Positions 4,453 through 40,627 are shown, counted from the stretch's first letter. The stretch is DNA of 64,000 bases from Lytechinus pictus (GCF_037042905.1 NC_087252.1:3288001-3352000), one strand, 5' to 3'. A program made the numbers and translations. Notes: generated from the letters alone by a model not told the origin.

Positions 4453-4752
4453 TCAATACTCTCTGTTGCAATTCCTCTCTGGGGAAATGTTAAAGGAACT
4501 GTGCAAAATATGTGCAAACTTTTGTTGAAGTATGGCATCTGAAGTTGAACCCCCTTGCAGTGATGAAGCACATGCTGACTGTATAGGATTCGGAGAAGAA
4601 AAGTTACCAGGTGGACTGGTTTGATGATTGGGTGGAATACCTGGGTGAGCTATTGCCTTCATTTCCATGTATTCTTGGGAATCCTGGATGGTTTCCTTAG
4701 GAACCACATTACTTCGGGAAACAGCGGGATCTCCACCAACAGCAGGTTTGGA
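4453..4752 (-). CDS. Paralog A last coding exon (cytoplasmic tail with EYMEM; frameshifted C-terminus relative to B)
   Basis: Acceptor tttcctaactgtag|TCC at 4752, phase 0 matching the upstream exon; 300 nt to TGA. Confidence 0.75.
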   Translation of the reverse strand, partial: SKPAVGGDPAVSRSNVVPKETIQDSQEYMEMKAIAHPGIPPNHQTSPPGNFSSPNPIQSACASSLQGGSTSDAILQQKFAHILHSSFNISPERNCNREY

Positions 4753-7700
4753 CTACAGTTAGGAAAAATGTATGAAATGGAAAATTTAATGAGTAACACC
4801 TTTAAGAGTTGACCTGGAATTCAAAACATAAATTTCTTATACCATAAGTTGTTCGCGTGGCTGGAGATAAACTAATGGCCTTCTTATCGCCAATGAGTTT
4901 CGATTTACATCAATTTTATCGTTGTAGATGCACAATGTATAAAATAATGTCATGAGGGGATAAGATTTTAATATATCTATACTATTATATACTAGTATAT
5001 CTAAAATGTATAATTCGTTGCATGTATATTAAAAATGGCGTCGAAAATTGAGCATGATGATGATCAGCATATGTATATTATATAAATAATGAATGTTTAT
5101 GAGTGCGATGGAGAGAATACTTCATGAGGTAAAAGATGAAAAGATCCATTCAACGAGGCGTAGCCAAGTTGAATGGATCATTCATTTCATCTTTCACCGA
5201 ATGAAGTAATCTGTCCATTGCACGAATGAAGGAACATTCATTATTTGGTTAATATGACACTTTTTTTTCATAGAAAATTTATCAGTTACGATGCAAAATA
5301 TGATCATGCAGTGCGAGCTCGGTCTGTTGATTGTCGTGTTTGTCGCGTACAATGCCAGCGTGCAATGGACAAAATCGTATGGATCCAAAATTGCACGATG
5401 AAAGGACCCTAAATTGCACGGTCGATGACGTCATTGTAAAATGGTCCGAAAGGTCAAACAACCAATCAAATGCCAAGGATCTATCTAGGTGTCATATAAA
5501 TATTGTTATTATAAGTGTTGCCTTTTCTCGTCAACAATATCACACGAAATAGTATTCTCGAACTGGATCTATTGAAATATATATTCAGCTTTACTTAAAA
5601 ATTCGGTTTTAAAAAATTGAACAAGATTGGATTGGTATTGCCAATTATATTTACCATGATGGAATTCACATAAAGAGGCTCGTGGTTCGAGTTTTTCTGG
5701 TGCATTGCGGTCACTGGCACTCCATCAGCCATGTCTTCGTCCCCTGCTACAAAAGCAAATTTGAAAATGAAAGACATTTAAGGAGATTTCATTCTGTCTG
5801 TTTTGATTACGTGTATATGTATTGTCCGCGAATAAATGGGTAATCAACGCGAGAAGATAATTGGAAAGAGAGACACTGACATTATGCTTAGATATCGAAC
5901 ACTATATCGAATTGTTATTAATTAATTACTATTATTTTATTTTGGCAATAAAAAGTATACTAAATTGGTGAAATGAAGCATAAAACATAATGAATAGAGT
6001 ATGGATTGAGCACCCACTGGACTGCCTGGGTCAAATAAAGTTAAGTGATGTATTAACGGATAGTGAAATAATAAATCTAGATAACGGTAACGCTGAAAAT
6101 CACCAAAAGATCGCCAACAAAGAAAAAAAATTCAACATTGACAGTTAAAAAATAAATCGTTTCATTGGGAGCATGCAATGGCAAATTACTAATTTCAAAG
6201 CCATCTGGCGCATATTCTACAAATAAAACCAGTTTTATTCCCTTCTAATCTCTCATTGTAAATTCCGTTAAAAGTGCACATGATGTGCATGTTGAGCTTA
6301 TCATGCTTATTAACGTTGAATATGAGTCCAAACTGACTCAGTTTTGGTTGAATTGGCCAAAAATTGAAATGACATTTCCTGTAAATACATTAATAAAACA
6401 GTTGCGATGAACTATATAAATATCTTTGTTATGGTTATAGCTATAATTATAATAGCCTTGTAATCACCATGCACTCTAGAAACACTGAGTAGAATTTTAC
6501 CCAATATTTGGTATTTAGGGAACATGCATGTTTGCTGAGTATGTTTTTTTTTTTTTTTTTACATATTTCAACGCAACATTGCGTAAAATCTTTTTTACTC
6601 AACCAACATGCATGTTCCAATTTTACCCAGTATTGCACTGTAAAAAATTGCTGTAATTTGTACGGTAAATTGATGTAAATTTTAACAGTAAGATACTGTA
6701 ATGATGATTTTACAGTAATTTGCCGTATTATTCAGGCGGTACACGGTAATTTACAGCAATCATTCGAGTTCTTTTTTTGGGAGATCAACTTTACAGTAAT
6801 TTACTGTAATTGAGCACGCGAAATGCATTCTGGGATACAACACGTCACACGCGCATGCGCCTCTTACTCGGCGCGGAGCATAAATTCTTGCAAAATTTCG
6901 AGTGTCAGATCGATAAGAAGTGCCGTCGGAACTGCTGTTGTTTTAAATTCAACTTTACGTCTCCGGTCAAGTACACATTCCCTGGTAAGTAGTGATATTT
7001 TCATCCTGTAGATCCTTCACATGTAGAAATGTTTTGTTGAACTGTTTTACATATAATGTAATCTTTCATGGAACTCTGACATTCACCATCCTCACTTTTC
7101 GCGCTCTCTCTCTCTGTTGTCTATGAAGATGTATGTGTTAATGTGTGTTGTGCGGATGTTGTCTACGGAAGATGTGTACTGTGTAGATTTAGACTTAGAG
7201 TTGTGCGGGGTGTTGACTCAAATTTTGACTGTTTTTAACTTGCTAAAAAATAGTAAAGACCTATGCATAGAAATTTGGTATGTGTTGAAATTATCATTAA
7301 AATGCCTCTTAGCAATTCCATCATATCGACTAAATTTCATTACGCTACTTTTTGCTAGATCAGCTAGATAGATTGCATCGGATTCCGATGTCTGCACGCA
7401 GTTTAGCCATGCAACCCTGGCCATACTCGTACAGTACAGTCATGCAGCGCAGCATGCAGTGCTAGTGCAGTGCTGTATGGTGCGAGCTAGCTAGCCAGCG
7501 CATGCATGCAGCGCGCGCTAGCGCTAGCGATATGGCAAGGAGTTCCGGCCGACCGTGGGCAATCGTCTGTTACAGTCTGGTCTTTTGCATTGTGACGTCA
7601 TCACTGTTTGAAAGCGTGCGCGTGCATATAATTAGCCAAGGATGGGGAAGGGGGATACTCCCATGAATTCATTTGTGTCTTTTTCACAATGTAACACATA

Positions 7701-10700
7701 TATATTTCCTTTGCTATTGCAGTTTTTACACTTTGATAATGGTAAACTTTTCTTGAAAATATAGACTTATCCATTTGTAAATATTTTTAAAGTTGATCAC
7801 AAATAACACACAAACAATTTTTTTTTCCAACTCTATATTTCTACTTCTCGGTTCTCCACTTTTTTGTTTTGTCCTTTTCTTCCCGCTGCTTCTAATTATT
7901 CACCTCCTTTGTCTTCTTTCTTCACCAATTTCTTCTCCTTTGCCTTCCTTCTTGCCACCTCCCCTTTCCTTTTTTTTTTTTTTTATTTCCTCTTTTAATA
8001 TTCTAATTAATTCTTATCTCTTCTTTTGGCTTCTCCTACTTCTCATATCTCTTCCATCTTGTCAAACTCTTTCTCATTTTGCTTCTTACTCATTCCATGT
8101 CTATCTTCTTGTCCCCTATCTCCCTCCCCTCCTGCCCAGGACCCTACTCATTCAACTTATTATTTTTTTCTATTTTTTCCCTCTCTCTCTTCCTCCAGTA
8201 CTTCTCGTGGAAGCTGCGGCTGCAAAAGATGATGCAAACCTGCATGATGTAGCATCTGGTGTGCTGAGAGGGTTGCAGAGCCTGTTTAAAGAAGGGAATG
8301 ACTCCCTTTTCCTCATCCGTGATGTAAGATTTAATAATTACTCTCCTGAAAAATGTTTTGCGCTATTAGTCCTGAGTGAAAAAGTTAGTATTTAATAATT
8401 GCTTTTGTATCGATGACTCTGGACTTTTCAAGACCCTTTGTGGAACCTTTCCTTAGATCTGTTTTTTTTTTCTTTTTTTTTCTTCAATTTTTAATTTTTT
8501 GTTGTGGGGGGGGGGGGGTGTTTTGTTGCTAAGGCACGCCCCCATTTGAAAAAAGAAATGAGAGAGATCACTTGCCCTTCCCCCTTCGAGGTGGTACATA
8601 ATTGAAAATTAATTGATGATTATTTCTAGATTGTATTGGACCTTCACTCTTGGGGACTGCATGCTGTATGAAAATTAAAATCAATTAAATGACACTGAAG
8701 AGTTGAATCTTGTGTGTAATGGTAATGGAAACATGGGATTATCATATATTTTCAGGTTACAGATACTGCTGAGGACATGGAGAAAGAGGGAGATGCATCT
8801 GATTCACCCAAACTCATAATCCAAGGTGCATGACAACTTCCAGTGTTTTTAATCAAACCTCTTAGAATAATATAATACAGACATTTAAAACATTCTCAGA
8901 TTTAGGTCTAGACTAAATCTGTACAGACATGTACGTTTATTTTGTGTCAATTTTCTTAAACAGACTTGTATTTCATATGTACATCTTTCACTTTCAGCAT
9001 TTCAGATTTGCCATGCTTGTAATTATATGCAGTCATTAACAAAAGAGACATGTGAATACTGCATGATCCCAGCCTTTAAAACTGGGCAAAAAACATAAAT
9101 TATAGTTTTTCACTTTGTAACGCGTCCATAAGGGGGGGGGGGGGGGAATCAGGACAATTGGAAATAAATAACTGAATTTTACTCTAGTGAATTTGTACCA
9201 GAGATTTTCCCATCAGCTAGTGTTATAAAACAAATTATAGAAAATGAAGCTCATAACGATTAAATCTTAACATTATTTTGTTTGATAGGAGATCCATTTG
9301 ACTCGGCCAAGTCCCAGTGGATGGTCATGGTTGAAAGCAGAGTTATTGGCCATTCATCATCAACAACTGAAGGCTTTCTTTGTGGGGTGGCATACCTTTT
9401 TGCCACCTATTACAACCTCAATTTGGAATATCCAAGCACGGCTGCAGCAACACTGGAGTTCATTCAGAGGTACAATATGGCATGCAAAATATCGGACCAT
9501 TTTCTGGAACTGACATAAGTCCAATTTCATGGACATCCTAGCTAAATGGAATTTCAGTCTGAAAAATAACTTGATTTAAAAAAATGTGGAAAAATAAAGA
9601 AAAATATTGGTGAAGGTTTGAAGAAAATCCGTCAAAATTTTTTGTTAGAGTTGTGAATATTTCAAGTTATGATGTTGTGACGTCACATCCGAGCAGCTCA
9701 TAAATTTAAGCATTTTGATTCTAGAACATACTTTCTTATCTGATAAATAGGCTTTTTATTAATGTGCTACTGCTTTGCGACTTGATGGAGCGAGCAACAT
9801 CCGACTGTTGCCTTGCCTTAGAAAACAAAGACATTCTTCACAGTACTTCTGCATTTATTTGGGAGCCAAATATGATTTCCATTGCAAGTGTCACGTTTTG
9901 AAAGCAAGAAAGCTCCTTGTTGAAAGTAAGCAAACCCAGCAGTACTGTGGGGAACTCCAAAATTTCAAGAACTTATTAGCGACTAGCACACTAACATCTG
10001 GTGTATTTTGGTGCAGGTTAATGATTACGTACTTGAGTAGAGAAGAGTGTGTCTCTGTACTAACAATAGAAAAAAGTGATTTAAAAAGTATTCTTTTTTA
10101 AGTAAAGCTGGCTTGATGGAGCCATCTATAATTACTGTTTGATAAATTTCATTTTAGGTTTGTCAATTTATTTTGACTCCCTCAGTTTTCATTTGATTGT
10201 TTTTATTTATTTTTTTTCTGTAATATCTTTTTCTCCCTGTCTCTCAGATGTCTCCTCGGAATAAGCCCTGATGGGTCGAAGTGCCATGCGTCGAAGAGTC
10301 ACTGCAACGCGAAAGTAGTGTCATTTGTGCGTCGGTTTGCTGATTTCCAGTGGCTTTAATTTCCTGATTTGTACATTTTACCCCATCATCTAAAAACATG
10401 TGATTTTATATATCACCCAATAATACTATGTTCGCTTGGTCACCATCCTCTTGAATAATTGGTTGAGCTTTGTCTGACCAAGCAACTACAGAGTTTATGC
10501 CCAATATTGCATAACATGAGAAACTTGCTGAAATAGATTGTCGACATGCTAGTTATGAGAGAACATTCATTTGAATATGCTATTAAGTTGACATTGCCCA
10601 CAACTTTATTTTAGCCGTTTCTCAAATCCAGGTCAAGTAAGAGTGGGGGAGGGGTAAAATTCATATAGAAATTGTAAATGTAAAGGGGTTTCATACTTGG

Positions 10701-13700
10701 AAAAATAAAGTTAAGAATATCTCCTTACAACCGAATTTGAACCATACAAAAACATAGATATATGGCACTACACACTGTTTGTATGCCTCCGCCCACCAAA
10801 GGTGGTGTCGGAGGTATTATGTTTTTGTGTTGTCCGTCGGTCCGTCTGTCCCACTTTCGTTCTCGCGATAACTTAAAAACCGGTCAACAGGTCAACTTCA
10901 TACTTTTTGACTTGAGGATACATATCTGGGCGACAATGAGCTGATAAGTGTTTGGGTCCAAAGGTCAAAGGTCATAGAATTCACTAAAATACATAAGAAA
11001 TAGACCATTCTTACAATAACTCCAAAACCCTTTGATAGATCAACTTCAAACTTGTCTCGTGTGTATATGTTAAAGTAACAATGATCTGTTCAGATTTTGG
11101 GGTCTCAAGGTCAAAAGTCAAGGTCATTGAATACAATAAAGTACATATAACATATACCGTTCTCGCAATAACTCCAAACCATTTGACGAATCAACTTCAA
11201 ACTTCGCTCATTTGTGCATATACAAGTGACAATGATCTATTAAGATTTTGGGTCTGAAAGTCAAATCTCAAGCTCTCTGGATTCAATCAAATGCATATAT
11301 TTGCTTTTTTGAGAAACAGTTATCTGACTAGATTTTGAAGTCACAAGATCAAAGGTCTTGAGGGTTTTTTTTTTCTTTATGGAAATAAAAACTAGGAAAT
11401 ATATTTCTGGTATGGCAGTAGCGGAGGCATCTATTTCCAACATTCGTGGTCGAAAATTCATCTTTAGTTAGGATTAACATTGCTGTAAATCAATTTCGAT
11501 TTCAACATTGTGGTACATTATATATATATGTATATATATATACTGCGTAGTAAGCGCTTGGTCATCAAGATGTTGACAAATATTGCAATAAGCTGTTTAC
11601 TGAGAACGATGTAAACTTCTGTAATGTATGTGGCTTTAACACAGCCTACCAAGGTGGAGTGAGATTATTATTATATTATTATTACATGAATGACACAGTG
11701 ATCTCCATTATTGCATATCATGCATGGCTGACTGTTAGCCATTTTTGTAAAGAGGACCAAATTATATCAAGAAATTCAGGAAATCTTAAGGTGATGTAGC
11801 AATTTTTTGTTTTCTTATAGTCAGAAAAGGATATTAAATGTATCAGAAATTCCTCAAATGAAAAAGCATGTGACATTTTGATTACATTTCAAGAGTTTCT
11901 CAAAATAGCAGATTTGCATGATGTAGTACAGAAAAATTTGAAAATTGTAGATACTTCTCACAGATTGACATTTTTCTTCATTATGATTACTGAGGATTTA
12001 CTACATTGTATTTTGTTGTTCACAGAATTATAACATTTTCATACTTTCACTTTCGCAGCTGTTCAAGTGTCACAGTACAAACATTACTTTGGCAAAATTG
12101 GAGGTCATATTTGTACATGTTTGTTCGTCAAATATTCATGTAAATATTAAGTATTTGCAATGGTAGCAATACTCTCATTCGGGTTCTTTCTTGCCAGTTT
12201 CAATATCAAATTGATAGTACTGTTATAAGAAACTTTATTTGTGAGGAATATTGTATGCAATGTAATATTATTGTCACAATTTAATGTATTCATGGCAGTT
12301 AATGTATTTGTATGCTTGTAATATAAATTATTGGTTCAGTGTGTGTTTAGGACTATTCATTATTTTGATATAGGATTGAATAAGGTTTTCTGTCTTAATA
12401 AGATTTTTGGGAATATGTATATATAAGAAGTTGACATACACTTAATTTTTTATCAATTAATAGTATACATGTAAAATTACTCATAAGTGAGAAGTTTCAC
12501 TTAAAAATTCAGTTTTCTTCTGGTAGAAGCATTGTCGTCAGGTTACCATGGAGTAAGCATTTTGCGTGTTACTACGGATATGTGGATGTAAGAGATAGAG
12601 AGTCTGTGTGTGTGCGTGTGTGCGTGTGTATGTTCATCCAGTGTTCATCCAAGGTCAGCTGAGACAAGCCCTCCTAGAAGGAAGTTCACTTTAGTCAGAT
12701 TTGTTTTCTTAAAGAAATTGAAAGTTTGCCATTATTTCAGGCAGTAGTTGCATAAGTGAAAAATTGCTTTCACTTGTAATTGATTCTAATGGGTTATGAC
12801 TGAATATTTGAATGATTATGGTACCCTTCATGTAAATGGATTGCTTTAAAACACACCTGTTCATTAATGTACTCTCATTTAATATACAGTGGCCTGAAAG
12901 TTTGTGTAAGGTTAGCAATTACAACTACTTTAATGCATGCAAGGTGAATTTTACTTGTTGAATAGATTTATTTACAAAATGTTTAAGTCAACTGAATTGC
13001 AAACAGCAGATAAAGTAACACCAACCAAATTTTATGGTTGTTCTTACAACCTTTGTTGCTTGCTCTGACAGGTCCAACAAATACATAAAGAGTTTATGCA
13101 TGCAAAAAGGATGCCACTTATTGTAATACCATTCAGTACATGGTAATTACCTATTACCAAATCCAGAGGAACAAAGTATTCATGAAATTTGACTACATTA
13201 GTGAACAGGTCTGTAATGAACATCAGCATTCTTAGGACATTTCTGTGTACATAGTTTCTGTATAATTGTCATCTTTGAAATTTGATTATGCAACACATTC
13301 TACTTGCCAGCATTTTTCCCATGATCCTTACAAAAATTGTACTGTTTGTGAAATATGGCATTGTCAGTTCTACTGCATGTTAATGCAATAAAGACTTTTC
13401 AAAGTTTCATTCAAAAGTTTTACTCAAGTGTATTTTTGTCATTGGAAGTTGTGCCAATTACAGTAAAACATACTGTAAATGGGGTCAATTTACAGTAAAT
13501 TACTGTAGGGAGTGTACAGTACTGGGGGTAAATTGGGAAGGTGTACAGCATTTTACTGTAGGAAGTGTACAGTACCTCACTGTAATGCAAGGGAAATTTA
13601 CAGTAGTTTACTGTAATTTAACCAAATTTACAGTAGCAACAATTCTAAAATTTGGTAAATTTTACAGTAAGCTACAGCACTTTTCACGGTATTTTCCTGT

Positions 13701-16700
13701 AGCTAGTTCAAATTTACAGTAATTTACTGTAGGACGAAACTACAGTAGCTTACTGTAAAATAAAAATTACAGTAAATTACCGTGCAGCAGAGTTGCCAGT
13801 AATTTACTGTAAAATCTACAGTAAACTTTTTACAGTGTGGGTAAACCTTTTTTTAAGAGTGTGTTCATATACAATTCACATAGACATGATAGACTACAGC
13901 AAATATCACCATCGTCTGGTCCTTAGAAGACTAATTTACATATTTTCATAGATATCAGATTTAAATTTTCTGTGTCATTAACAATTAAACAACTTCAACG
14001 AATTTAATATTATATTGATATTTCTTGATTAAATTATTGAACAGAAACAAAATCACCTCTATCCGTGTCATGTTGTAAGCACTTGTGAGAAACCGTTACT
14101 GCAACTAGGCCCAGAATCATTGCACCTAATGACCCTCCCAAGATGTATAAAACTATATGAAGCAGAGCACAGTTGTCTAGAGTCAAAACATACAATTACA
14201 TGTTATTTCTTCTGACAATTATGAATATTAAGTCTTCCCTAAATTGCAAGCGAGTCAAGCCAAATATATATGTCTTACCATTTCACCTCTTTGAATAATG
14301 ATATAGTTCAAACGATGTGAAAATACAACCAGAATAGTTTAAGTGTCAATATAGATGTTGACTGTATAGGATATCAGCATTGAAATTCAAATTTAACAAA
14401 ACAGATAACTCTTAAGACACATTGCTTATTAGATAGCATTTACGGGAACATTCATGAAAATCTATGAGCGATTCATAAAATAATTAATATATATTCATCT
14501 TTCTTTAGAATGCCAGAAAGCATCAAAGGTTATTCTGGGAACGTATTCTTATCTTGTATTCATTTGCGAGTACTCTAAACGTGCAATGTCATTAGATAAT
14601 TTCCTCAATCATTATTGATCCGTAAATCAAAATCGGTATCAAAGTAATTAATACATTGCGCATTTTCTTATCAAAATCATTCGAACACCAAACTTATAAT
14701 GTAATAATAACCATTATGAATTAGTTAGGATTATTACAGCTATCGTGTTTAATAATAGTCAACTGTTTTATAATATTAATGTTCGGTCGAAACTGTGAAT
14801 TGAATATTATTGTCTGATCTCATGTCAAATCTCAGCTAAGATCATGTTATAAAGTCATTTATATCAACAGTAGGGAAAAAAGGTACAAAATGTAATCACA
14901 AAATTAAACTATTGAGGCAATAAAAGAATAAATACGGCTAAATGAACATGGGACTGGCACGTGATGCCAACAATGAAATAATGAGCAATGGAATAGTAAT
15001 AATAATAATAATAATAATGACAATAATAGTGATAATACCAATTACAATAACGGATGAATATGAATATGCTTACAATGAAACCTTGAAATAAAATGCCTTG
15101 TGCTTTAAATCTACCGTTTGAAAACTGATATCATATAGTCCGCTCTGATCCGCTGCCAAATACCAAACAAAACGGAAAAAAGTATCGTTATTCAATATAT
15201 GGGACGACAAGTACAATTTCAAACATACAATAATCATGTTCATCTCATAAATGAAAAAAAAAATTACACTGTGGTCTGCAGCCAATGACTGACCTCCATC
15301 TACTCATGCGCAATCTGTGATTACGAAATGGCGCATTTAGTCATATTTTGCAAAGGAAATAAAATACAGACAATATCAACCTTGTAGTTCTTCATCACTT
15401 GACAGACTTGGATTACTTTCCTCAGAAGTTGTCGCAAGATGTTTGGTTTGGGGAGTTGCTCCTACATATTTTGGGAAATAAAACGAGTGCATAATATTAA
15501 CATTCAAACTAGTATCAACTGTCTTAAAATAAAACCCTTGATTACATTCGTCATGTTACGTCATTAATTGTGTCAAGGATCCCTTAATAATCAGGAGGAA
15601 CTTTTTTTTTTCCTCTATTGAAAATCGAATAAAATAGATAATACAAAAAAGTCTAATAAAATCATATCCTGACCTAGGTATTGTTATTCATTATATGGGA
15701 TGACAAGTACAGTTTCACTCAACGTATCAATAATCATGTTAATCTCATAAATAAATATAAAAAAATAATGCGATCTGCAGCCAATGACTGACCTCCATTT
15801 ACTCATGCGCAATCTGTGATTACGAAATGGCACATTCAGTCATATTTGGCAAAGGAAATAAAAGAAAAACAATATTAATCCATTATTTCTCCATCACTAA
15901 TTGTCAGACTTGGATTGCTTTCCTCGGGAGTTGTCGCAAGATGTTTGATTGGGGGAGTTGCTCCTACATATTTTGGGAAATAAAACGAGTGCATAATATT
16001 AACATTCAAACTAGTATCAACTATATTAAAAGAATACACTTGATTGCATTCGTCATGTTACGTCATTACTTGTGCCCAGGATCCCTTAATAATCGGGGGG
16101 GGGGGGACTTTTATTGCTCTATTGAAAATCGAATGACATAAATGATACAAACAATTAAAATAAAAATGATATCCTGACCTAAGATCGGGATGGATTTGTT
16201 ACCATTTGAATTTCATTGACATGATACAAATTTCACTCTACAAAGTGACTTGAGCACATTAATTTCCATATTTATTTACCTTAATAGAAACAATTTAAGA
16301 ATTTGTTATGTTGGAACTTATCATCATGAAACATTTATCTCTAGACAAATATTTCGAGAACGAAGCACGAGCGGATTTTTTTTTTTTAATTTATACCTGA
16401 AAATGAGACGTCCGCCATTACTAGCGCGTATGAACTAAATGCCATAAATGCAAGCGTATATTTTGTATACACTGACCAGAAAAATGAAGTTTTAGCGATT
16501 GTTTGTAAGAATTCATAAAAATACTATTAATACACTCGTAAAACAAATAATACTGGTGCAATAGGTGTTAATTCCTTTATCAATCCCTGTCGATTGTGTA
16601 CAAGGTAATATAAAAAGGAGAAACACTGGGAATGGTTCGAGGAAAAAAAGACAGGAAACAAGAGAAAGAAAAAAAAAAGAAGATATTTTCATACTAGCAA

Positions 16701-24000: not shown

Positions 24001-24136
24001 TCTCAGTAAACAGCTTATTGCAATATTTGTCAACATCTTGATGACCAAGCGCTTACTACGCAGTATATATATATACATATATATATAATGTAGCACAATG
24101 TTGAAATCGAAATTGATTTACAGCAATGTTAATCCT

Positions 24137-24826: not shown

Positions 24827-25246
24827 AACAGTGTGTAGTGCCATATATCTATGTTTTTGTATGGTTCAAATTCGGTTGTAAGGAGATATTCTTAACTTTA
24901 TTTTTCCAAGTATGAAACCCCTTTACATTTACAATTTCTATATGAATTTTACCCCTCCCCCACTCTTACTTGACCTGGATTTGAGAAACGGCTAAAATAA
25001 AGTTGTGGGCAATGTCAACTTAATAGCATATTCAAATGAATGTTCTCTCATAACTAGCATGTCGACAATCTATTTCAGCAAGTTTCTCATGTTATGCAAT
25101 ATTGGGCATAAACTCTGTAGTTGCTTGGTCAGACAAAGCTCAACCAATTATTCAAGAGGATGGTGACCAAGCGAACATAGTATTATTGGGTGATATATAA
25201 AATCACATGTTTTTAGATGATGGGGTAAAATGTACAAATCAGGAAA

Positions 25247-27382: not shown

Positions 27383-27444
27383 CTGGAGGAAGAGAGAGAG
27401 GGAAAAAATAGAAAAAAATAATAAGTTGAATGAGTAGGGTCCTG

Positions 27445-29525: not shown

Positions 29526-31875
29526 CTGGGCAGGAGGGGAGGGAGATAGGGGACAAGAAGATAGACATGGAATGAGTAAGAAGCAAAATGAGAAAGAGTT
29601 TGACAAGATGGAAGAGATATGAGAAGTAGGAGAAGCCAAAAGAAGAGATAAGAATTAATTAGAATATTAAAAGAGGAAATGAAAAAAAAAGAAAAGGAAA
29701 GGGGAGGTGGCAAGAAGGAAGGCAAAGGAGAAGAAATTGGTGAAGAAAGAAGACAAAGGAGGTGAATAATTAGAAGCAGCGGGAAGAAAAGGACAAAACA
29801 AAAAAGTGGAGAACCGAGAAGTAGAAATATAGAGTTGGAAAAAAAAATTGTTTGTGTGTTATTTGTGATCAACTTTAAAAATATTTACAAATGGATAAGT
29901 CATTATTTTCAAGAAAAGTTTACCATTATCAAAGTGTAAAAACTGCAATAGCAAAGGAAATATAAATGTGTTACATTGTGAAAAAGACACAAATGAATTC
30001 ATGGGAGTATCCCCCTTCCCCATCCTTGGCTAATTATATGCACGCGCACGCTTTCAAACAGTGATGACGTCACAATGCAAAAGACCAGACTGTAACAGAC
30101 GATTGCCCACGGTCGGCGCGGCCGGAACTCCGCGCGCTGCATGCATGCGCTGGCTAGCTAGCTCGCACCGTACCATACAGCACTGCACTAGCACTGAATG
30201 CTGCGCTGCATGACTGTACTGTACGAGTATGGCCAGGGTTGCATGGCTAAACTGCGTGCAGACATCGGAATCCGATGCAATCTATCTAGCTGATCTAGCA
30301 AAAAGTAGCGTAATGAAATTTAGTCGATATGATGGAATTGCTAAGAGGCATTTTAATGATAATTTCAACACATACCAAATTTCTATGCATAGGTCTTTAC
30401 TATTTTTTAGCAAGTTAAAAACAGTCAAAATTTGAGTCAACACCCCGCACAACTCTAAGTCTAAATCTACACAGTACACATCTTCCGTAGACAACATCCG
30501 CACAACACACATTAACACATACATCTTCATAGACAACAGAGAGAGAGCGCGAAAAGTGAGGATGGTGAATGTCAGAGTTCCATGAAAGATTACATTATAT
30601 GTAAAACAGTTCAACAAAACATTTCTACATGTGAAGGATCTACAGGATGAAAATATCACTACTTACCAGGGAATGTGTACTTGACCGGAGACGTAAAGTT
30701 GAATTCAAAACAACAGCAGTTCCGACGGCACTTCTTATCGATCTGACACTCGAAATTTTGCAAGAATTTATGCTCCGCGCCGAGTAAGAGGCGCATGCGC
30801 GTGTGACGTGTTGTATCCCAGAATGCATTTCGCGTGCTCAATTACAGTAAATTACTGTAAAGTTGATCTCCCAAAAAAAGAACTCGAATGATTGCTGTAA
30901 ATTACCGTGAACCGCCTGAATAATACGGCAAATTACTGTAAAATCATCATTACAGTATCTTACTGTTAAAATTTACATCAATTTACCGTACAAATTACAG
31001 CAATTTTTTACAGTGAACTTTTGGATTCCTGTTGGAGTCTAGGGTCAGAGCACGTACGTACTTGTTTCTAATGCAGTATATAAAGCGGGATTTTGCCAAA
31101 AGGGGGTGGGGCGCAGAATGTTTTCATCCACGTTTCCCCGATGGGCCGCTAAAAGCCAATTTTTGCTGTTGGTTTATAGAGGAGCAGTCCCAACTAAAGA
31201 CTAAAGTTTCAAGTGCATTTAATCAGCTTTATTCTTACAAACAAGATAGGCTATCTCACATTGCCTAAATCGATGAGCGCGCGAAGCGCGAGCTCTACTT
31301 TTTGGATAACTGATGCATTTAGACTAAAGCAATGAACATTCTTAGCAGTTTTTGCCAGTATATGCGAGCGCGAATCGCGCGCTGAATTTTTAATATATTG
31401 ATGGTACATTCCGAGTAACAATACAAATATGATTTTTTTATTAAAATGTCATGAACAACAATGAAGTGTAACTAAATTTGTATTTAAATTTCAGCTAGAT
31501 GACTTTACCCTCCTGCAAAATAAGTTGAATTGCATGTATAGTGATATGCACAGATGAATGGTATTGGAATGCATGTTAAGTTACCTTAATCATGCACTCT
31601 GAAATAACCTGAGAACACTAAGATTCATTACCTCAAATCAAGTTTGTGAACTGTTTGGGAAGTATTTATAAGAGTGGTGTGCCATATTTTCTTAGAAATG
31701 TGAAAAAAAAATTGTGCATGTAAATGTATACTAAAATTATTGACCCCCTAAATAGAAAAAATTAACAACAACAACAAACACAAAAACAGAATAAAATTAG
31801 CACTTCATACGGAGAAATACGATTGATTCCATTTTGTTTGCATAAGACTGCATTATAATTGTTCATCATTACACA

Positions 31876-32177
31876 CACTGTAAAAAAAACCCCGATTTTA
31901 CAGAAAAAACTAGATTTTGCAGGAAGCAATAACACAATCATTCTATAAATTCATAAAACGGGAATTTTGCTACAATTTAACAGAACAGGTCTGTTTAAAA
32001 AGGGGAAAATTGTGTTTTATTTAAGGAAATTTGTAAGGTTCCAAACACCTAATACCAATTTCCTGTAATTTTACATGATATAATGTAAGAATCCGCAATC
32101 TGGTAAGATTACAGGTGTTCTCGAGACTTTGCTGCAGGAACTTCTTTTATTTTTCAAGGATAAATTTTCTAACAGTG
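31876..32177. mobile_element. CACTG-type MITE (paralog of 1650-1948)
   Basis: CACTGT...ACAGTG termini, TSD CA. Confidence 0.75.
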
Positions 32178-32948: not shown

Positions 32949-33290
32949 TCATAAATATGTGGTGATTACCGAATCAATACTCTCTGACGCAATTCCTCTA
33001 TTGGGAAATGTTGTAGGACCTGAACAGGATAAGTATCCCCCGTCACAGGAATTCAACATTTGTTGAAGTATGGCATCTGAAGTTGAACCCCCTTGCAGTG
33101 ATGAAGTACATGCTGACTGTGTAGGATTCAGAGAAGAAAAGTTACCAGGTTCACTGGTTTGATGATTGGGTGGAATACCTGGGTGAGCTATTGGCTTCAT
33201 CTCCATGTATTCGTGGGAATCATGGGTGGTTTGCTTAGGAACCACGTCACTTCGGGAAACAGCGGGATCTCCACCAACACCAGGTTGGGA
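32949..33290 (-). CDS. Paralog B last coding exon (cytoplasmic tail)
   Basis: aactgtag|TCC acceptor, 342 nt to TGA; EYMEM, GGYLSC, ITTYL*. Confidence 0.8.
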   Translation of the reverse strand, partial: SQPGVGGDPAVSRSDVVPKQTTHDSHEYMEMKPIAHPGIPPNHQTSEPGNFSSLNPTQSACTSSLQGGSTSDAILQQMLNSCDGGYLSCSGPTTFPNRGIASESIDSVITTYL

Positions 33291-36200
33291 CTACAGTTAG
33301 CATGGTTAGGGAAAATGTATGAGATAGGAAAATTTACTCAGTAACACCTTTAAAAGTTGACCTGCAATTCAAAACATAATTTTTTTATACCATAACCAAT
33401 ATGCTCTTGCCAATAATTAAGAAACAATCAAGTTGTTCGCGTGGCTGGAGATAATCTAATGGCCCTCTTATCGCCAATAAGTTTCGATTTACATCAATTT
33501 AATCGTTGTAAATGCACAATGTATAAAATAATGCCATAAGGTGATAAGATTTTTAATATATCTATACTATTATATCTATTTTAAATGTATAATTCGTTGC
33601 ATGTATATTAAAAAATGGCGTCGAAAATTGAGCATGATGATGATCAGCATGTGTATATATATTTTTATTATAAGTGTTGCTTTTTCTCGTCAACAATATC
33701 ACACGAAATAGTATTTTCGAACGGGATCTATTGAAATATATATTCAGTTTTACTTAAGAATTCGGTTTAAAAAATTGAACAAGATTGGATTGGTATTGCC
33801 AATTATATTTACCATGGTGGAATTCGCATAAAGGGGCTCGTTGTTCGAGTCCTTCTGGTGCATTGCGGTCACTGCTACTCCATCTGCCGTGTCTGCGTCC
33901 CCTGCTACAAAAGCAAATTTGAAAATGAAAGAAATTTAGGGAGATTTCATATAAAAAACGGATATTGTATAGTCTGTTTTGATTACGTGTGCATGTATTG
34001 TCCGTGAAGAAATGGGTAATCAACGCAAGAAAATAATTGGAATTAAAGGCACTTTGAAATTCTGACATTATGGTTAGATATTGAACACTATAGCGAATTA
34101 TTAGTTATTATTATTATTTTATTTCAGCAAGGAAAAGTATATTGAATTGGTACAATGTAAGGAAAACATAACGAATATAACATGGATCGAGCACCCATTT
34201 GACTGCCAGGGTCAAATAAAATTAATTATATGACACCTACATGTAGATAGATCATTGTGATTTGATTAGTTGTTTGTTAACGTTCATTCAGCCCATTTTG
34301 CAATGACATCATCAACCGTGCAATTTTGAATCCATTCATCGTGCAATTTTGGATCCATACGATTTTGTCCATTGCACGCGCACAACGAGACTGCAGCTGC
34401 AGGCACAAGCAGTGCGCATGTTGTAATGACGTAACAATCAACAGACCGAACTCGCACTGCATGAGCTTGTTTTGCATCGAAATTCATTAATTTCATATGA
34501 AAAAAATAAGTGTCATATAAAGCAAATAATGATTTTTTTTCATTCGTGCAATGGACAGAATATTTCATTCGGTGAATGGATCATTTCATCTTTCACCTCA
34601 TGAAGTATTGTGTCCAAATAATAAAAAAGTCGGTCTCGCGGGCTTTTGGCCTTGTTGGCCTTTGGTCAAGGGGTCGGACCCCGTTGAAAAAAAAATCGTT
34701 TCAATGGGAGCATGCAATGGCAAATTACTACTTGCTAATTTCAAAATCATCTGGCGCATATTCTATTTTTTTGTTCCCTTCTAATCTCTCATTGCAAATT
34801 GCGTTAAACAGGGGCCGCGGAACCTCCCACTTTTTTCCAAAACCGTGTACAAAAAACGTAAAAATGACCATATAATTGTGATTTTTAGCATGGTCAGCCC
34901 CCCCCCCCTCCACTTTGAAAACCGTTCCGCGGCCCCTGTTAAAAGTGCACATGATGTGCATGTTGAGCTTATCATGCTTATTAACGTTGAATATGAGTCC
35001 AAACTGACTCAGTCTTGGTTGAATTGGCCAAAAATTCAAATGACATTAAACAGTTGCGATGAATTATATAAATATCTTGGTTATGGTTATAGCTATATAA
35101 TAGCCTTGTAATCACCATGTTCATATACAATTTACATATATATGATAGACTACAGCAAATATCACCATCTTCTGGTCCTTAGAAAAGACCAATGTATACA
35201 TATTTTCATAGACGTCAGATTTAATTTTTATGTGTCATTAATAATCAAACAACTTTAACGAATTCGATATTATATTGATATTTCTTGATAAAATTATTGA
35301 AGAGAAAAAAAAATCACCTCTATCTGTGTTATGTCGTAAGCACTTGTGAGAAACCGTTACTGCAACCAGGCCCAGAATCATTGCACCTAATGATCCTCCC
35401 AAGATGTATATAACTATACGAAGCAGAGCACAGTTGTCTAGAGTCAAAACATAAAATTACATGTTATTTCTTCTGACAATTATGAATATTAAGTCTTCCT
35501 CAAATTGCAAGCGAGCCAAGCCAAATGTATATATGTCTTACCATTTCACCTCTTTCAGTAATAATATAGTTCAAACGATGCGACAATACAACCAGAATAG
35601 TTAGGTGATCAAAAATAATTGTAAAACAACCTATGTCAATTTAGATGTTGTCTGTATTGGATATTAGCACTGAAATTCAAATTAACAAAACAGATAACTC
35701 TTAAGACACATTGCTTATTAGGTAGCATTTACGGGAGCATTCATGTAAATGAAATATTGTAAATTAAACTCTATGAGCCATTCATTAAAGAATTGATATA
35801 TATATATTAATCTTCCTTTAGAATGCCTGAAAGTATTAAAGGTTATTCTGGGAACGTATTCTTGTATTCATTTGCGAGTACTCTAAACGAGCAATGTCAT
35901 GAGATTTTTGTTATGGCATATAATCTCCTCAATCATTATTGATCCGTAAATTAAAATCGGTACCAAAGCACGTGATGCCAACAATGAAATAATGATCAAT
36001 GGAATAATAATAGTAATAATAAAATGACAATTATGGTGATAATACAAATAACAATAACGAATGAATATAAATATGCTAAGAATGAAACCTTTAACGAAAC
36101 AAAATGCCCTGTACTGTAAATTTACCGTTTGAAAACTGATATTAAATAGTCAGCTTTGACCCATTGGCAAATACCAAACATGACGGAACAATTTATTGTT

Positions 36201-39200
36201 ATTCATTATATGGGATGGCAAGTAAAATTTCAAACAACGTATCAATAATCATGTTAATCTCATAAATAAAAAAAATAATAATACTGCGGTCTACAGCCAA
36301 TGACCTCCATCTACTCATGCGCAATCTGTAATTACGAAATGGCACATTCAGTAATATTTAGCAAAGGAAATAAAATAAAAACAATAATAACCTTGTGCTT
36401 TTTCATCACTTGCCAGACTTGGATTACTTTTCTCAGGAGTTGTCGCAAGATATCTGATTGGGTGAGTTGTTCCTACATATTTTGGGGGAGTTGTTCCTAT
36501 ATATTTTGGGAAACAAAAAGAGTGCTTAATGTTAACATTCAAACTATTATCAACTGTATTAAAAAATACACTTGACTGCATTCGTCATGTTACGTCATTA
36601 CTTGTGTACAGGATCCCTTAATAATCAAGGGGAACCTATGCATTGCTACATGTATATTGAAAATCGAATAACATAGATATTGCAAAAAATGTCTAATAAA
36701 ATTAAATCCTGACCTAAGATGGAACAGATTGTTTACCATTTGAATTTCGCACTCGTTTTAAGAACATAATGTTGGAATTCATTATCATGAAACATATCTC
36801 TCTAGACAAATATTTCGAGAGCGAATCACTAGCGGATATTTGATTTTACGCATTTATACCTGTAAATGAGACATCCGCAATTACCAGCTCGTATCAACTA
36901 AATGCCATAAACGCAGGCGTATATTTTGTATAAACTGACCCCCAAAATAAATGCAATTTTAGCGATCGTTTGTAACAATTCATAAAAAATACTATTCATA
37001 CACTTGTAAAACAAATAATACTGGTGCAATATGAATAATGCAAATTCCTGTATCAATCTCTGTCGCTTGTTTACATAATTATAAACAGGAGAAAAACTGG
37101 GAATGATTCGAGGAAAAAAAGGAAACAAACGAAAAAATAAAATATTTTCATATTAGCAAAGGCGACAATTAGAACAGAATTACCTGTTTACTGTACATCT
37201 CTTCTGTGAAATATATGATAGAAGGGAAATTACTGTAAAATACATGTAGCTTTCATGTGACCAAGGAAAAAGAATTGGGAGAAAGAAGGGAACAAAATAT
37301 TCACTTGTGGCAAATGACGGTACAAAATTACAGCAGTAGAATTTCGATATTTGTATTAAATTAAAAGTGGAACAAAAAATAATGTTGTTAATATTCATTG
37401 AATTCCAAAATGATAATGTAGAATGAAATAAATACACGTAATCTCTTTAATACAGGGTACAATCTAATTGTCATGCCATGGCTAAAAACGAATTTTCACA
37501 CTTCTTTGAAAAAAAAATAATTGAATGATTACCTTCATTTCTTATGATGACTGATGTTGTTATATGATGAAACGATGCATTCGCCACCCTACACATGACC
37601 ACAAGCTCCTCAGTACCGTTGTATGATAATGGCGTAAAGAAGATAGTTCGCGAAGGCACACTTAGTCGTCCATCATGGGCAACATTTTTATTCTCTTGTA
37701 AATAGTCATAAAAGATTATTCCGACTGAAATATTCCATTCCAAATACACTGGTGGTTTCACTGATCGATTGGTTTTGCAGACTAGTGTCATATTCTCCCC
37801 TTCTCCAACCGTAAGCGTTTCTTGCTTGTGTAGAGTAGCATTATCCATCCCGTCTATTAAGATCAACCCCTCCGGTGGAACTGAAATCATTCAAATAAAA
37901 TGATTGTTTTATTTTTCACCATGCATAACAAGAATGAATTGATAATGATAAAAATTATAATAATAACAATAGCTAGTTTTTTTATACAGCGCTATTCACA
38001 TAGCGGCGCAAAGCGCATTTCAACACATTATTACATACGTATGCATAGCAACGAAGCGTAAACTTTTTTTCTTTTTGAAGCGCAGGATCCCTTGACCATA
38101 TCTAAACCGGGGTGCTCGGAGCCCTTTTCCCTCTAGGATTCGCGTAATATTTTCACCGCGCGAAATATACTGACCGTGCCGTTGGAGGACTTTATACTTT
38201 CAAGTCTTGCACATCTTTTGGGACCAAATTTTTGACACCCGGGTACGCGGTTCTGAAATTACACTACATTTTGTATAAACTGCATGTCACACCAAAAATT
38301 GCTCAAAAACATGATTCCGTGTACAATATCAATGCAAAGTGTGTTTACAACAGAAAATCATAAATTTATGATTATTTTTAGTTTTCCTGGTCTAAATGTA
38401 TATATTCTATGCTGTCTATGATTTCAAGAGTCCCCGGCAAAGATCATCGAAAAAAAAAGAAATACATAAGTAATTACAAAAAAATTATATAAATTTGATG
38501 AGAATACCACCATGACCACAACGAGTTTGTACACCACACAATATAACATTTGGAGCTTTATTTGGGGAGATAGAGAAAAACGTATAATTTTGCACACTAA
38601 TTACGCATAGATTAGCATAATCAATAAATAGCAAGTTGCATGAAATAAATAAAAATAGAATTTTGTAGATCATATCCTAAACAAGTTGCGTGCCAATTTT
38701 TGGCACGTTTGCGAGGTCGGCGGCCGAGATCTCAAGGGGGCTTGCTAGGCACCCTCCGCCCCTGCCACATGATAATAATCCGGCCTAGATAGGGTTAAAA
38801 AAAACATCACAGGTAAGTAATTCGTTTGAACTAAAACTAGAATGTGCCGATTTTGAATTCATTGTTTGCTAATATTTAAAGTATAATGATGGAAAGAATA
38901 AAATTTTGCGTGTGTGGTGAGGTCTGTTCCCTTTTGTTATCTTTCTCAATATGTTAACTACTATGAGCAACGTATTTATTTATTTATTTATTTATAAGTC
39001 TTTTAGTAGGGTGACTCCATCAGTAATTGATAAACTGTTGTCCTTGGAGGCCCTACAACAAAAATAGAAACATAACAAACATGGGTATAAATAGTTTACA
39101 ATGTAAGTTGAGACAAACAAACTGTAAAGAAAAGAACAACACAAAGGGCCAGTTTATAAATCAAGACTGGGACCTTAATTGTGATTAGTTATAAAGCTCC

Positions 39201-40627
39201 TACATGTATAACATAATATAAATTTACCATGGGGGAGTGTTTCATGACACAGGTCCCTGTTTATTCATATTTTCTTTATGATATGTAATTGAAGTATCCA
39301 CTTTTCAATTCAATTCAAGTTTATTTCCACATCTGATTAAAAACACAAGTACAAATTCATATGCAAGTAGATATATACAATAAGAAAACATTAAAATGAA
39401 ACATATTCAGTTCATAATCATAATGTGGTGGGAATTGACAAAGGCCTATTAGGGTTATTCATATAGGTAATAAAATTTACATAAAATGTTTCTTAAATAT
39501 ATATAAAATATAACACAAAACAATAGAAAAATTATAGACACACATGGAATTCAAAAATATAAGTGTAAATGAAATAACAGAAGACAACCAGACATTCTGG
39601 AGCCCACCCCCAGGCAATATTTTGTTAACTATTCTAGGATTCATTTTCAACTAGGTATTTTTTAAGATTTCTTTTAAACATATTCGAAGTAGGGCATATT
39701 TTGATTTCTTGTGGTAAATTGTTCCACTTTCACCGTTGAATTCAAATAAAACCTATTGTTTTTTTTTCGTTGTTTGTGTTTTTCAAAGTATGTATGACTG
39801 CTATAGAATTCTACTAATTCGTTTGAAAGGAAAATACTGATCTTGATTTATGAGTGTTCACTTTTTGTTACTAGGAACTTAGAATGTATATATTTATGTA
39901 ATGCATGTATTATGTAATGTATTATGTATGTATTTATGTAATGCATGTATTTATGTAATAAACGAATATGCTACTTCTTAAAAAAATGTATAACGTCTAC
40001 CATTCACTGTCAGGTTGATTCTGCACTCACTGCGGTAGTTGTTAGACAGCATGACAGCAGTGTATATACCCTCGTTGTCAAGTGAGATATTGTTCATTGT
40101 CAAAATGCTGACCGGTTGATGATTAACTTCAAGTGTGTGCATCGTTGTATTTATTTGACCGTCATTCTGCGTAGTCCATCTGAATAACACTGAGCCGTCA
40201 CTCACCCAGGAAATAAATTTTAATTGTTCGGTTACGGTGGTTAATATGCACTGGAGACGTACGTCGTCCCCAAAATTTGCTTCCTTATTTATATCTAAAA
40301 AGTAGAAATTATTAAAGAGAAAGACAAAAAATATGTAAGCGATTATATGAGTTTATTATGTACACAACCACTATTGTGAGCATTTATTAATAGCTGCTCC
40401 ATGACGGCCAAAAAAACGTAAACATAATGTTACTGAATATCGATGTAATGAACCGTGCAAGAATAGACATTTGTCAATCATGATACAATAATTTACAGGA
40501 TTATTGTGATATGACACAAAATGGGAATCTGTCATTGAAACGGCGACTCAATCTATTTATTCCAATGCTTACCTTGAGAACAAAATACCGATCCGATGGT
40601 GATAACCAAAATAAATAAATGCCACAT
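32949..40627 (-). CDS. Paralog B: apparently intact Ig-superfamily type I membrane receptor, ~447-455 aa
   Basis: Exons 40573-40627 (MWHLFILVITIGSVFCSQ), 40001-40294 (Ig1), 37533-37880 (Ig2), 36392-36496 or -36472 (T/P/S stalk), 35318-35437 (TM), 35166-35177, 33813-33904 (PLYANST), 32949-33290 (EYMEM...SVITTYL*). All GT-AG, phases compatible, no internal stops seen. Confidence 0.85.
33813..33904 (-). CDS. Paralog B cytoplasmic exon (AGDADTADGVAVTAMHQKDSNNEPLYANSTM)
   Basis: 92 nt, same splice sites as 5655-5746. Confidence 0.75.
34226..34625. mobile_element. Interspersed repeat related to 5081-5500, opposite orientation
   Basis: Shared segments such as GGACAAAATCGTATGGATCCAAAATTGCACGATG on opposite strands. 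Absent from the equivalent site in A. Confidence 0.6.
34809..34938. mobile_element. 130-bp MITE with 15-bp perfect TIR and 5-bp TSD
   Basis: CAGGGGCCGCGGAAC...GTTCCGCGGCCCCTG flanked by TTAAA. Empty site CCGTTAAAAGTG in A (~6265). Confidence 0.8.
35318..35437 (-). CDS. Paralog B transmembrane exon
   Basis: 120 nt, phase 1-1; DNCALLRIVIYILGGSLGAMILGLVAVTVSHKCLRHNTDR. Confidence 0.8.
36392..36496 (-). CDS. Paralog B putative stalk exon (two in-frame acceptors 24 nt apart)
   Basis: (GTTPPKYV)GTTHPIRYLATTPEKSNPSLASDEKAQ, 105 or 81 nt, phase 1-1. The donor CAAG|gttatt is weak. Confidence 0.5.
37533..37880 (-). CDS. Paralog B Ig domain 2 exon
   Basis: 348 nt, phase 1-1; TLVC...LEW...VMCRVAN. Confidence 0.85.
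38096..38794. mobile_element. piggyBac-like MITE (degenerate) in intron 2 of paralog B
   Basis: Right end CCGGCCTAGATAGGG|TTAA; left end TTGA|CCATATCTAAACCGG (imperfect TIR, mutated TTAA). Confidence 0.5.
39304..39790 (-). mobile_element. LINE 3'-end fragment
   Basis: Minus strand reads WNNLPQEIKICPTSNMFKRNLKKYL, followed by a 3' UTR ending in AATAAA and a (TTGAA)n tail. Confidence 0.6.
40001..40294 (-). CDS. Paralog B Ig domain 1 exon (V-like)
   Basis: 294 nt, phase 1-1; GDDVRLQC...ISW...NISLDNEGIYT...CRINLTVN. Confidence 0.85.
40573..40627 (-). CDS. Paralog B first coding exon (signal peptide)
   Basis: ATG at 40627, donor CAAG|gtaagc. Confidence 0.8.

Follow-up and report, generated by a model that had tools for sequence, protein, structure and literature searches.

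A possible paired-receptor-like cluster of two-domain immunoglobulin receptors of Lytechinus pictus, a sea urchin

Introduction

Accounts of sea urchin immunity centre mainly on expanded pattern receptors and SpTransformer. In the frog Xenopus, ceacam genes form pairs in which a receptor with ITIMs (immunoreceptor tyrosine-based inhibitory motifs) has partners carrying YxxL/M and Grb2-type YxN motifs, the ligand exons are re-matched by gene conversion and the replacements fall on the CC'C''FG face of the domain; both YxxM and YxN are among the motif types listed for activating Ceacams (PMC5112662). Here we analyse a window of 64,000 nucleotides of Lytechinus pictus (G000:C8:3,288,001-3,352,000), whose two tandem receptor genes of the immunoglobulin (Ig) superfamily (IgSF), A and B, belong to a larger cluster on the same contig. 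From its sequence features we lean towards reading this cluster as paired-receptor-like, of the human CEACAM1/CEACAM3 type, with A and B as probable activating-type or decoy members.

Two invertebrate systems share a number of features with the locus. The Alr proteins of Hydractinia (bioRxiv 10.1101/2022.03.04.482883) are clustered, single-pass IgSF proteins with a most divergent domain 1, exon shuffling, non-canonical Ig cysteines and some ITIM tails. In this line, the FcoR/fester genes of Botryllus form an IgSF cluster in an invertebrate deuterostome, with ITIMs and other Tyr motifs, intergenic recombination and paired C-terminal YxxV motifs ~30 residues apart (PMC12582321). Since Hydractinia and Botryllus thus have Ig families with both ITIM and activating tails, the kind of system considered here is already known.

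Gene Structure and the Cluster on Contig C8

Comparison of the window with itself revealed a tandem duplication (~1.4-20 kb against 31.6-40.8 kb), the first copy being split by a 7.2-kb transposon. The two paralogous genes with the same exon layout proposed by the original prediction, made from the sequence alone, were indeed found there on the minus strand: gene A runs from an ATG at 19877 to a stop at 4453 and gene B from 40627 to 32949, each with seven exons in the order signal peptide, Ig1, Ig2, stalk, transmembrane (TM) and two tail exons, which, joined by coordinate, give open frames of 427 and 442 amino acids (aa), respectively. All six introns of either gene have AG/GT ends, in phases 1,1,1,1,1,0, and the extracellular parts carry 10 (A) and 9 (B) N-glycosylation sequons. 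Counted in whole codons, identity between A and B is 53/96 in Ig1, 84/114 in Ig2 and 35/39 in the TM exon, in agreement with the values first counted by eye (54/99, 85/116 and 36/40). The original prediction overlooked two elements, the Ser/Thr/Pro-rich stalk exon, also present in the NCBI models of paralogues (P0001, P0002), and a frameshift in the tail of A. The latter is due to a 17-nt deletion in the last exon, with loss of the GGYxSC motif and of the conserved end DSVITTYL, so that the tail is conserved between A and B only in part. An extra copy of the stalk exon lies in gene A at ~15881-15963, without a GT donor. The TM exon shared by both genes (type A; in B at 35318-35437 of the window) encodes a GxxxG motif, and gene B has an Arg near the outer end where other L. 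pictus copies carry His. No RNA support was listed for gene B with a query that contained introns.

A and B are two of nine ectodomain-bearing loci within ~345 kb of contig C8, so that the diversifying receptor cluster first suspected is borne out by the copies in the animal's own genome. Besides searches of this genome, the survey took in an unbroken 540 kb that spans the cluster and includes the window, and its counts are lower bounds: at least nine Ig2 exons (one broken), eight whole Ig1 exons and nine YMEM-type last exons lie between 3.054 and 3.397 Mb, all on the minus strand. Named by their position in kb, the loci are g3396, an orphan TM and tail module (3372), B, A, g3275, g3200, g3160, g3140, g3100 and g3066, where the leader exons of g3200 and g3100 are candidates only and g3140 (3.140 Mb) is broken, with half of Ig2 and the TM lost. 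The YMEM-type last exon had no matches elsewhere in the genome search. A YxxM motif occurs in 9/9 last exons and YxN in four of the nine first tail exons; YMEM and DSVITTYL are invariant in all eight intact last exons (gene A excluded), in which 45/95 columns are invariant overall.

RefSeq models exist for three of the YMEM-tail loci. The relatives with NCBI names are L. pictus proteins and one L. variegatus protein, all 'uncharacterized', and the homologue searches returned no one-to-one orthologue among named genes, in line with the original prediction, which assigned none. Further Ig1 exons of the cluster type were found in other assemblies (P0008-P0011, P0013, P0155). A profile search with Ig1 gave 270 matches; of the 150 listed, P0017 and single-exon proteins looked like family members and the remainder were generic Ig repeats. 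A metagenome scan with alignment A2 gave no family member among 33 pattern matches. Uncollapsed haplotypes are an unlikely cause of the cluster, because the paralogues differ by 5-23% in uneven blocks. Soluble members lacking a TM were also considered and rejected: RefSeq models show a different TM exon in two loci, and only the broken locus at 3.140 Mb is without one. Far from the cluster, at C8:38,096,600-38,110,420, four tandem Ig1 copies, mostly broken by stops, frameshifts or truncations, precede a single open Ig2 exon. Neither a TM nor a tail exon was found in 100 kb at this site, which is a relic of several V exons placed before one constant exon.

An ITIM Gene and Its Conversion-Matched Twin

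The gene at g3396, LOC135154845, lies 52 kb beyond gene B and was reached through P0017, one of its isoforms, which the Ig1 profile search had returned. Its exons map exactly to C8:3,396,764-3,380,409 and include a different TM exon, followed by a tail unrelated to the A/B type. In isoform X1 this tail holds the motifs LDYDLL, AEYAQV, SDYDLL, AEYAVV and AEYAVV, with neither YxxM nor YxN. Two of them, LDYDLL and SDYDLL, are canonical ITIMs by the consensus [ILVS]xYxx[ILV], as given in the Alr preprint (bioRxiv 10.1101/2022.03.04.482883), and the other three are of the form AEYAxV. Five of the eight tail Tyr residues are in a Yxx[ILV] context (shuffle p 0.005) and the two ITIMs have p 0.04, both values being optimistic for a tail that is internally repeated. 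A search for a second copy of two tail exons of this gene found none. Five RefSeq isoforms (X1-X5) are annotated, which suggests transcript support. Three of them (P0017, P0157, P0158) use a donor inside Ig1, at C8:3,395,752, and thereby lose strands F and G, 23 aa that include the G-strand Cys, and others differ in stalk and tail exons. A single-sequence AlphaFold model of the protein (pLDDT 39.6) was set aside, and a search of the ESM Atlas with its tail gave leads only (0.80-0.81). Close to this gene, 7.6 kb past its stop, lies the orphan module (C8:3,372,747-3,371,193), a TM exon with both YMEM-type tail exons that is the most divergent copy of all; it may be a relic or an alternative tail of the ITIM gene, and is unused by the four RefSeq isoforms examined.

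LOC135154845 shares with g3160 a tract of 3.4 kb that covers ~1.1 kb of upstream sequence, the leader exon with intron 1, and Ig1 with intron 2. The leader exon is identical (0/53 differences), the non-coding sequence differs at 79/2848 positions (~3%) and Ig1 is identical at 82/91 residues with a synonymous divergence (dS) of 0.025, in a setting where both flanks of the tract diverge by 20-30%. Downstream of it, the TM and tail of g3160 are of the A/B type, with YxN and YMEM, ~5% from those of g3100. All nine Ig1 replacements between the twins fall in the C-C'' or F-G segments, which make up 46/91 sites (p 0.0014). Altogether, the features of paired receptors present here are clustered genes, an ITIM member and a second member with a conversion-matched Ig1, and the ITIM gene with its twin makes an immune reading stronger than it was from the A-B pair alone. 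In the same way, the Ceacams (PMC5112662) have a single ITIM receptor alongside numerous paralogues. Their partner tails bear YxxL/M-type and Grb2 YxN motifs themselves, the ligand-binding V exon has been matched by recent conversion, and later replacements lie on the CC'C''FG face. Because the arrangement matches CEACAM pairs, g3396 is read as putatively inhibitory and g3160 as its putative activating twin.

Divergence of the Distal Domain

A faster distal domain had been expected, and the rates agree: pooled over four young pairs, the ratio of non-synonymous to synonymous rates (dN/dS) is 0.97 in Ig1 versus 0.54 in Ig2, and a class of sites above 1 is found in Ig1. Between A and B the two domains have equal dS, and dN is 2.4 times higher in Ig1. 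Site models for eight Ig1 sequences, run with home-made code and branch lengths scaled from M0 on sequences in which recombination is present, favoured M2a over M1a with twice the log-likelihood difference (2dL) at 15.0 and M8 over M8a at 14.5, placing 15-18% of sites at a dN/dS of 3.1-3.6. The top sites (41, 86, 87, 89, 91, 17 and 14 in the numbering of the B exon) map to the F-G turn, the G strand, the end of C' and the B-C loop. No class above 1 was detected in Ig2 with the same models. Restricted to the four young pairs, Ig1 gave a 2dL of 9.0, a value reached in 0/70 null simulations; across both analyses the fast class sits at a dN/dS of 3-5. These patterns of substitution suggest that diversifying selection on Ig1 is likely. 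A narrower claim of the original prediction, that the segment between strands F and G is almost wholly different between A and B, stood only in its description: both peptides are present as quoted, and their 3/12 identity is not beyond chance (best-window permutation p = 0.57), so that hypervariability of F-G was rejected as a conclusion from the A-B pair alone.

Homogenised Tails and Exchanged Exons

Along the A-B pair, maximum-likelihood dS falls from 0.27 in Ig1 and 0.26 in Ig2 to 0.09 in the TM, 0.19 in the first tail exon (28 codons) and 0.04 in the last exon, with dN of 0.35, 0.14, 0.05, 0.13 and 0.09, respectively; the Nei-Gojobori values for Ig1 (dS 0.34, dN 0.30) follow the same trend. 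Raw non-coding divergence is 0.22 in the 5'UTR, 0.12 in intron 3 and 0.06-0.09 further 3', and introns 1 and 2 do not align past the exon edges. Since dS and non-coding divergence drop towards the 3' end, the duplication appears to be older than its 3' halves look, with TM and tail apparently homogenised later. It had been stated beforehand that synonymous and flanking-intron divergence as high as the non-synonymous one in Ig1 would point to exon exchange or 3' gene conversion, and half of that pattern is what we find: Ig1 dS (0.27-0.34) is similar to dN (0.30-0.35) and to the raw 5'UTR divergence (0.22), and the 3' introns are at 0.06-0.12.

The conserved Tyr tail of the original prediction is accordingly a mixed case. 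Its Tyr motifs are indeed invariant; the rest reflects recent homogenisation with a dN/dS of ~1 (1.04 for the last exon, pooled over the four young pairs, with only the motifs fixed), and the end of A's tail is lost. The idea that purifying selection keeps the tail was therefore rejected, except for the motifs (dS 0.04-0.09, dN/dS ~1). Exon exchange is directly visible at other loci of the cluster. Between B and g3200 the Ig2 exon is 21-30% different and the introns right after it 2-4%, and g3275 and g3066 are hybrids that join g3396-type Ig2, stalk and TM to a YMEM tail without YxN. The L. variegatus protein combines a g3200-like ectodomain (Ig1 87/98, Ig2 100/114) with a last exon nearer to g3066 (91/113 against 78/113), a mixture suggesting that the Ig1 lineages are older than the species split and that tails are still moving.

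Fold and Cysteines of the Ig Domains

Concerning the V+C2 ectodomain first proposed, the V part is supported by Pfam, where Ig1 matches the V-set and I-set models (E 6e-6 and 1e-5) above their cut-offs (A, V-set 26.9 bits, cut-off 26; B, I-set 25.7 bits, cut-off 23.7), and by a V-like fold. The C2 label of Ig2 has no Pfam C2-set_2 match behind it, Pfam Ig matches being weak (E 0.016-0.24), and comes from a resemblance to the nephrin-like proteins' second domain. For Ig1, AlphaFold was given eight paralogues and produced a best model with pLDDT 79.8, the other four models reaching 37-58. Its best Foldseek matches are PD-L1, IgLON5, CD96, nectin-1 and CAR, at 13-20% identity and with a TM-score by query of 0.64-0.77 among the top matches, which is a generic Ig likeness. 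An Ig2 profile run against PDB sequences gave weak generic matches only (best E 0.0035). Among solved sequences, NCAM and the IgLONs are the closest.

The cysteines of Ig1 are unusual. In alignment A1 the F-strand Cys is missing and a G-strand Cys is invariant in 8/8 cluster Ig1 exons, so the canonical B-F disulfide is not found. As A and B have only two Ig1 cysteines, Cys B and Cys G, and titin I69 offers a precedent (PMC5766482), a B-G disulfide is likely by analogy. The same alignment has an additional Cys pair in the C'-C'' region in 6/8 Ig1 exons, absent from A and B, and lacks the C-strand Trp in 4/8.

Relation to Known Families

A CTX/nectin/B7-like or Alr-type membership, as suggested originally, does not hold: matches are spread over many families, the F-strand Cys is absent and so is Fn3. 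The B7/PD-L1, nectin, CAR/CTX and CD96 proteins share the V-like fold and the V plus C2 layout, but at 13-20% identity, with unrelated tails and without the loss of the F-strand Cys. The Alr proteins (bioRxiv 10.1101/2022.03.04.482883) have domains of the V, I-set and Fn3-like types, six invariant Cys, ITAMs (immunoreceptor tyrosine-based activation motifs) and tails more divergent than their ectodomains, whereas the cluster lacks Fn3 and has homogenised tails; in P0159 and P0001 Pfam finds two Ig regions only, with just a short stalk between Ig2 and TM. FcoR (PMC12582321) has sushi domains and hemITAMs, acts together with a distinct cognate partner, FF, and maps to a histocompatibility locus. 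Nothing of this is seen in the cluster; Pfam found no sushi domain in P0159 or P0001. Finally, nephrin-like proteins of Diadema (P0124) and L. pictus (P0152) also place a V domain before a C2-set domain with detectable similarity, and their V domain carries two paired cysteines in its C'-C'' region. They differ in having at least five Ig domains together with Fn3, and a canonical B-F disulfide, against two domains with B/G cysteines in the cluster genes. By the features tested, the cluster is not a member of the Alr, FcoR, nectin, CTX, B7 or nephrin families, although it is reasonable to infer from the similarity that its ectodomain originated from a nephrin-like gene. One such gene, with a V-C2-C2-Ig-Ig-Fn3 layout and ~30-63% identical by exon to Diadema P0124, lies beside the cluster at C8:3,017,390-3,027,400 on the plus strand.

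A Model of Paired Receptors and Its Alternatives

Beyond the observed gene structures, motifs, mosaic history and rate differences, we infer expression on immune cells, ligands, the sign of each signal and pressure from pathogens. Each protein would be a single-pass, heavily N-glycosylated (as predicted) receptor with V-like and C2-like domains, and Ig1 would bind its ligand via the C-C'-C''-F-G face. The known preferences of SH2 and PDZ domains link YxxM to PI3K p85, ITIMs to SHP1/2 and T-x-L ends to PDZ domains. LOC135154845 would recruit SHP-type phosphatases through its tandem ITIMs and damp the cell, while seven members, A and B included, would trigger uptake or activation through a shared YxxM tail (PI3K or endocytosis type), four of them with YxN (Grb2 type) as well. 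The locus g3160 would be the activating twin under the same promoter as g3396, and A and B would be activating or decoy specificities of greater age, the tail of A being shortened. Between head-to-tail copies, unequal crossing-over together with gene conversion might keep the activating tail uniform and preserve the old, divergent Ig1 lineages, with an occasional refit of an activating gene with the promoter, leader and Ig1 of the inhibitory one.

Several observations weigh against this model. A motif scan of both joined proteins found neither ITAM nor ITIM in the tails of A and B, nor does the cluster have ITAMs or sequence homology with CEACAMs, and the TM of A and B has no clear mid-membrane charge, with Arg or His only near the outer end. 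The tail of A is frameshifted and g3140 is broken. A and B are only 33-34% identical to the ITIM gene in Ig1 and hence are not its twins, and YxxM, YxN and a PDZ-type end are also compatible with adhesion or growth receptors. As for the rates, the pooled Ig1-Ig2 difference is borderline (2dL 5.5, 2 degrees of freedom), the mean Ig1 dN/dS is not above 1 (A-B 1.29, 2dL 0.64) and in the young-pair test the selection signal of the last tail exon was no weaker than that of Ig1 (2dL 13.5), for which reason artefacts of alignment or recombination may play a part. Within the shared tract, the excess of the Ig1 non-synonymous rate over the non-coding one is not significant (p 0.13), and the front-face enrichment, noticed before it was tested, occurs in one of four pairs only. 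Moreover, conversion in Xenopus ceacam genes is confined to the exon and the genes are in opposite orientation (PMC5112662), whereas the tract described here spans 3.4 kb with promoter, leader and introns between head-to-tail genes.

Some of these facts would suit lineage-specific receptors for adhesion or cell identity derived from nephrin-like proteins (in neural, epithelial or gamete recognition), with the ITIM-type tail as an SHP2 docking site of the kind known from adhesion molecules and the mosaics as a by-product of tandem arrangement. The similarity between Ig2 and the second domain of sea urchin nephrin-like proteins (P0152, E 1.5e-12; P0124, E 7e-9), the nephrin-like gene adjoining the cluster at C8:3.017-3.027 Mb, the closeness to NCAM and IgLONs and an invariant C-terminal T-Y-L that fits a class I PDZ ligand all point this way; but fast turnover of Ig1, a site class above 1 and an inhibitory/activating pair whose match is limited to promoter, leader and Ig1 are what one expects from receptors in conflict, not from conserved adhesion, and homologue searches returned no full-length relative outside Lytechinus, so that we hold this explanation to be unlikely. 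Rather improbable, in turn, is that a single ITIM receptor is functional and the activating-type copies around it, including A and B, are duplicates in decay or under weak constraint, with relaxed selection and neutral mosaics from unequal crossing-over. Such decay would explain the pooled dN/dS of 0.97 in Ig1 and 1.04 in the last exon, the frameshift in A, the locus at 3.140 Mb without half of Ig2 and the TM, the orphan module, the broken outlier array and the fact that no protein model of A or B was returned by homologue searches. It sits badly with purifying selection on Ig2 (0.54, 2dL 13.1), with 8/8 cluster Ig1 exons being open (though many pairs are synonymous-saturated), with the 87/98 identity kept by the L. 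variegatus protein in the g3200-type Ig1, with invariant Tyr motifs and with RefSeq models for three YMEM-tail loci.

The allorecognition function suggested originally, which would make the cluster a histocompatibility locus comparable to Hydractinia Alr or Botryllus fester/FcoR, with self ligands on cells of conspecifics, is unsupported by this analysis and seems to us the most improbable of the alternatives. L. pictus does reject allografts without memory (PMC3342357 and PMC2248247), and the Alr and FcoR families likewise combine a divergent distal domain with exon shuffling and ITIM/activating tails, with FcoR core-2 pairs 29-33 residues apart that recall the paired C-terminal AEYAVV motifs of the ITIM gene, 32 residues apart. 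However, the defining property of such a locus is allelic polymorphism and a single haplotype is seen here; Fn3-like and sushi domains are absent, no search gave a sequence link to Alr or FcoR, and sea urchins are solitary.

With regard to the paired-receptor model, it is conceivable, on the doubtful side, that an echinoderm independently evolved true paired immune receptors, in which an ITIM receptor, exploited by pathogens or sensing self, would be countered by PI3K/Grb2-type partners and re-matched with them by conversion of promoter and ligand exon, A and B being older activating specificities. If true, this would mean conversion-maintained inhibitory/activating pairing outside chordates, and candidate receptors for self/non-self decisions of coelomocytes in a species with known graft rejection. 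The cluster offers one inhibitory candidate and a matched twin in a laboratory species, so that paired-receptor logic outside chordates becomes testable. No ITIM receptor or inhibitory/activating Ig pair of echinoderms was found in the literature searched, the 2006 sea urchin genome papers lying outside that search; the immune-genome papers of that year reportedly list V-type Ig genes, which could reduce the novelty. Passages searched in PMC11999971, PMC3342357 and PMC2248247 show no echinoderm ITIM or paired Ig case.

Features of the Window

Table 1. Exons of genes A and B and transposon copies, in positions of the window.
Feature	Position	Strand	Evidence
Gene A exon 1, signal peptide	19823..19877	-	ATG, hydrophobic 18 aa, phase-1 GT donor
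Gene A exon 2, V-like Ig1 with B- and G-strand Cys but no F-strand Cys	18715..19008	-	Pfam V-set E 5.8e-6, I-set 4e-5; alignment A1
Gene A exon 3, Ig2 C2-like	17074..17418	-	74% identity with B Ig2; resembles the second domain of nephrin-like proteins
Gene A exon 4, stalk rich in Ser/Thr/Pro	15381..15461	-	Matching exon in NCBI models P0001, P0002
Gene A exon 5, transmembrane type A	14057..14176	-	35/39 identical to B; matches P0002 TM
Gene A exon 6, first tail exon, YxN motif (PLYVNS)	5655..5743	-	Motif and joined frame
Gene A exon 7, last tail exon, YMEM	4453..4752	-	17-nt deletion near 4520, family C-terminus lost
Gene B exon 1, signal peptide	40573..40627	-	Joined frame
Gene B exon 2, V-like Ig1 with no Cys but Cys B and Cys G	40001..40294	-	Pfam I-set E 1.2e-5, V-set 7.3e-5; AlphaFold pLDDT 79.8; Foldseek
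Gene B exon 3, Ig2 C2-like	37533..37880	-	Identity with A and paralogues
Gene B exon 4, stalk	36392..36472	-	In-frame upstream acceptor at 36496 too, as in the NCBI model of a paralogue, P0002
Gene B exon 5, transmembrane type A	35318..35437	-	35/39 identical to A
Gene B exon 6, first tail exon, YxN motif (PLYANS)	33813..33901	-	Motif and joined frame
Gene B exon 7, last exon of the tail, with YMEM, GGYLSC and DSVITTYL at the C-terminus	32949..33290	-	Motifs and joined frame
7.2-kb DNA transposon in gene A intron 5	6636..13841	.	Ends CACTGTAAAAA, 2-bp flanking duplication TG
Inverted second transposon copy between A and B	21749..31015	.	97-99% identical; inserted purine-rich stretch; flanking duplication AA

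The transposon in intron 5 of gene A is presumably CACTA/EnSpm-like. As the first five exons of A sit between its two inverted copies, a recombination event joining these would turn ectodomain and TM around, away from the tail. Two further transposase copies of the Tc1/mariner type (48245-49500 and 49926-51180) lie head to head, 99.4% identical and with open frames of 340-364 codons; the first has Pfam matches to DDE_3 and HTH_Tnp_Tc3_2, and 166-bp repeats lie between the two. The window also starts with a 42-bp satellite in 27.8 copies (1-1165) and contains a 411-bp tandem repeat at 56822-58552 (3.2 copies, 99%) with an inverted arm.

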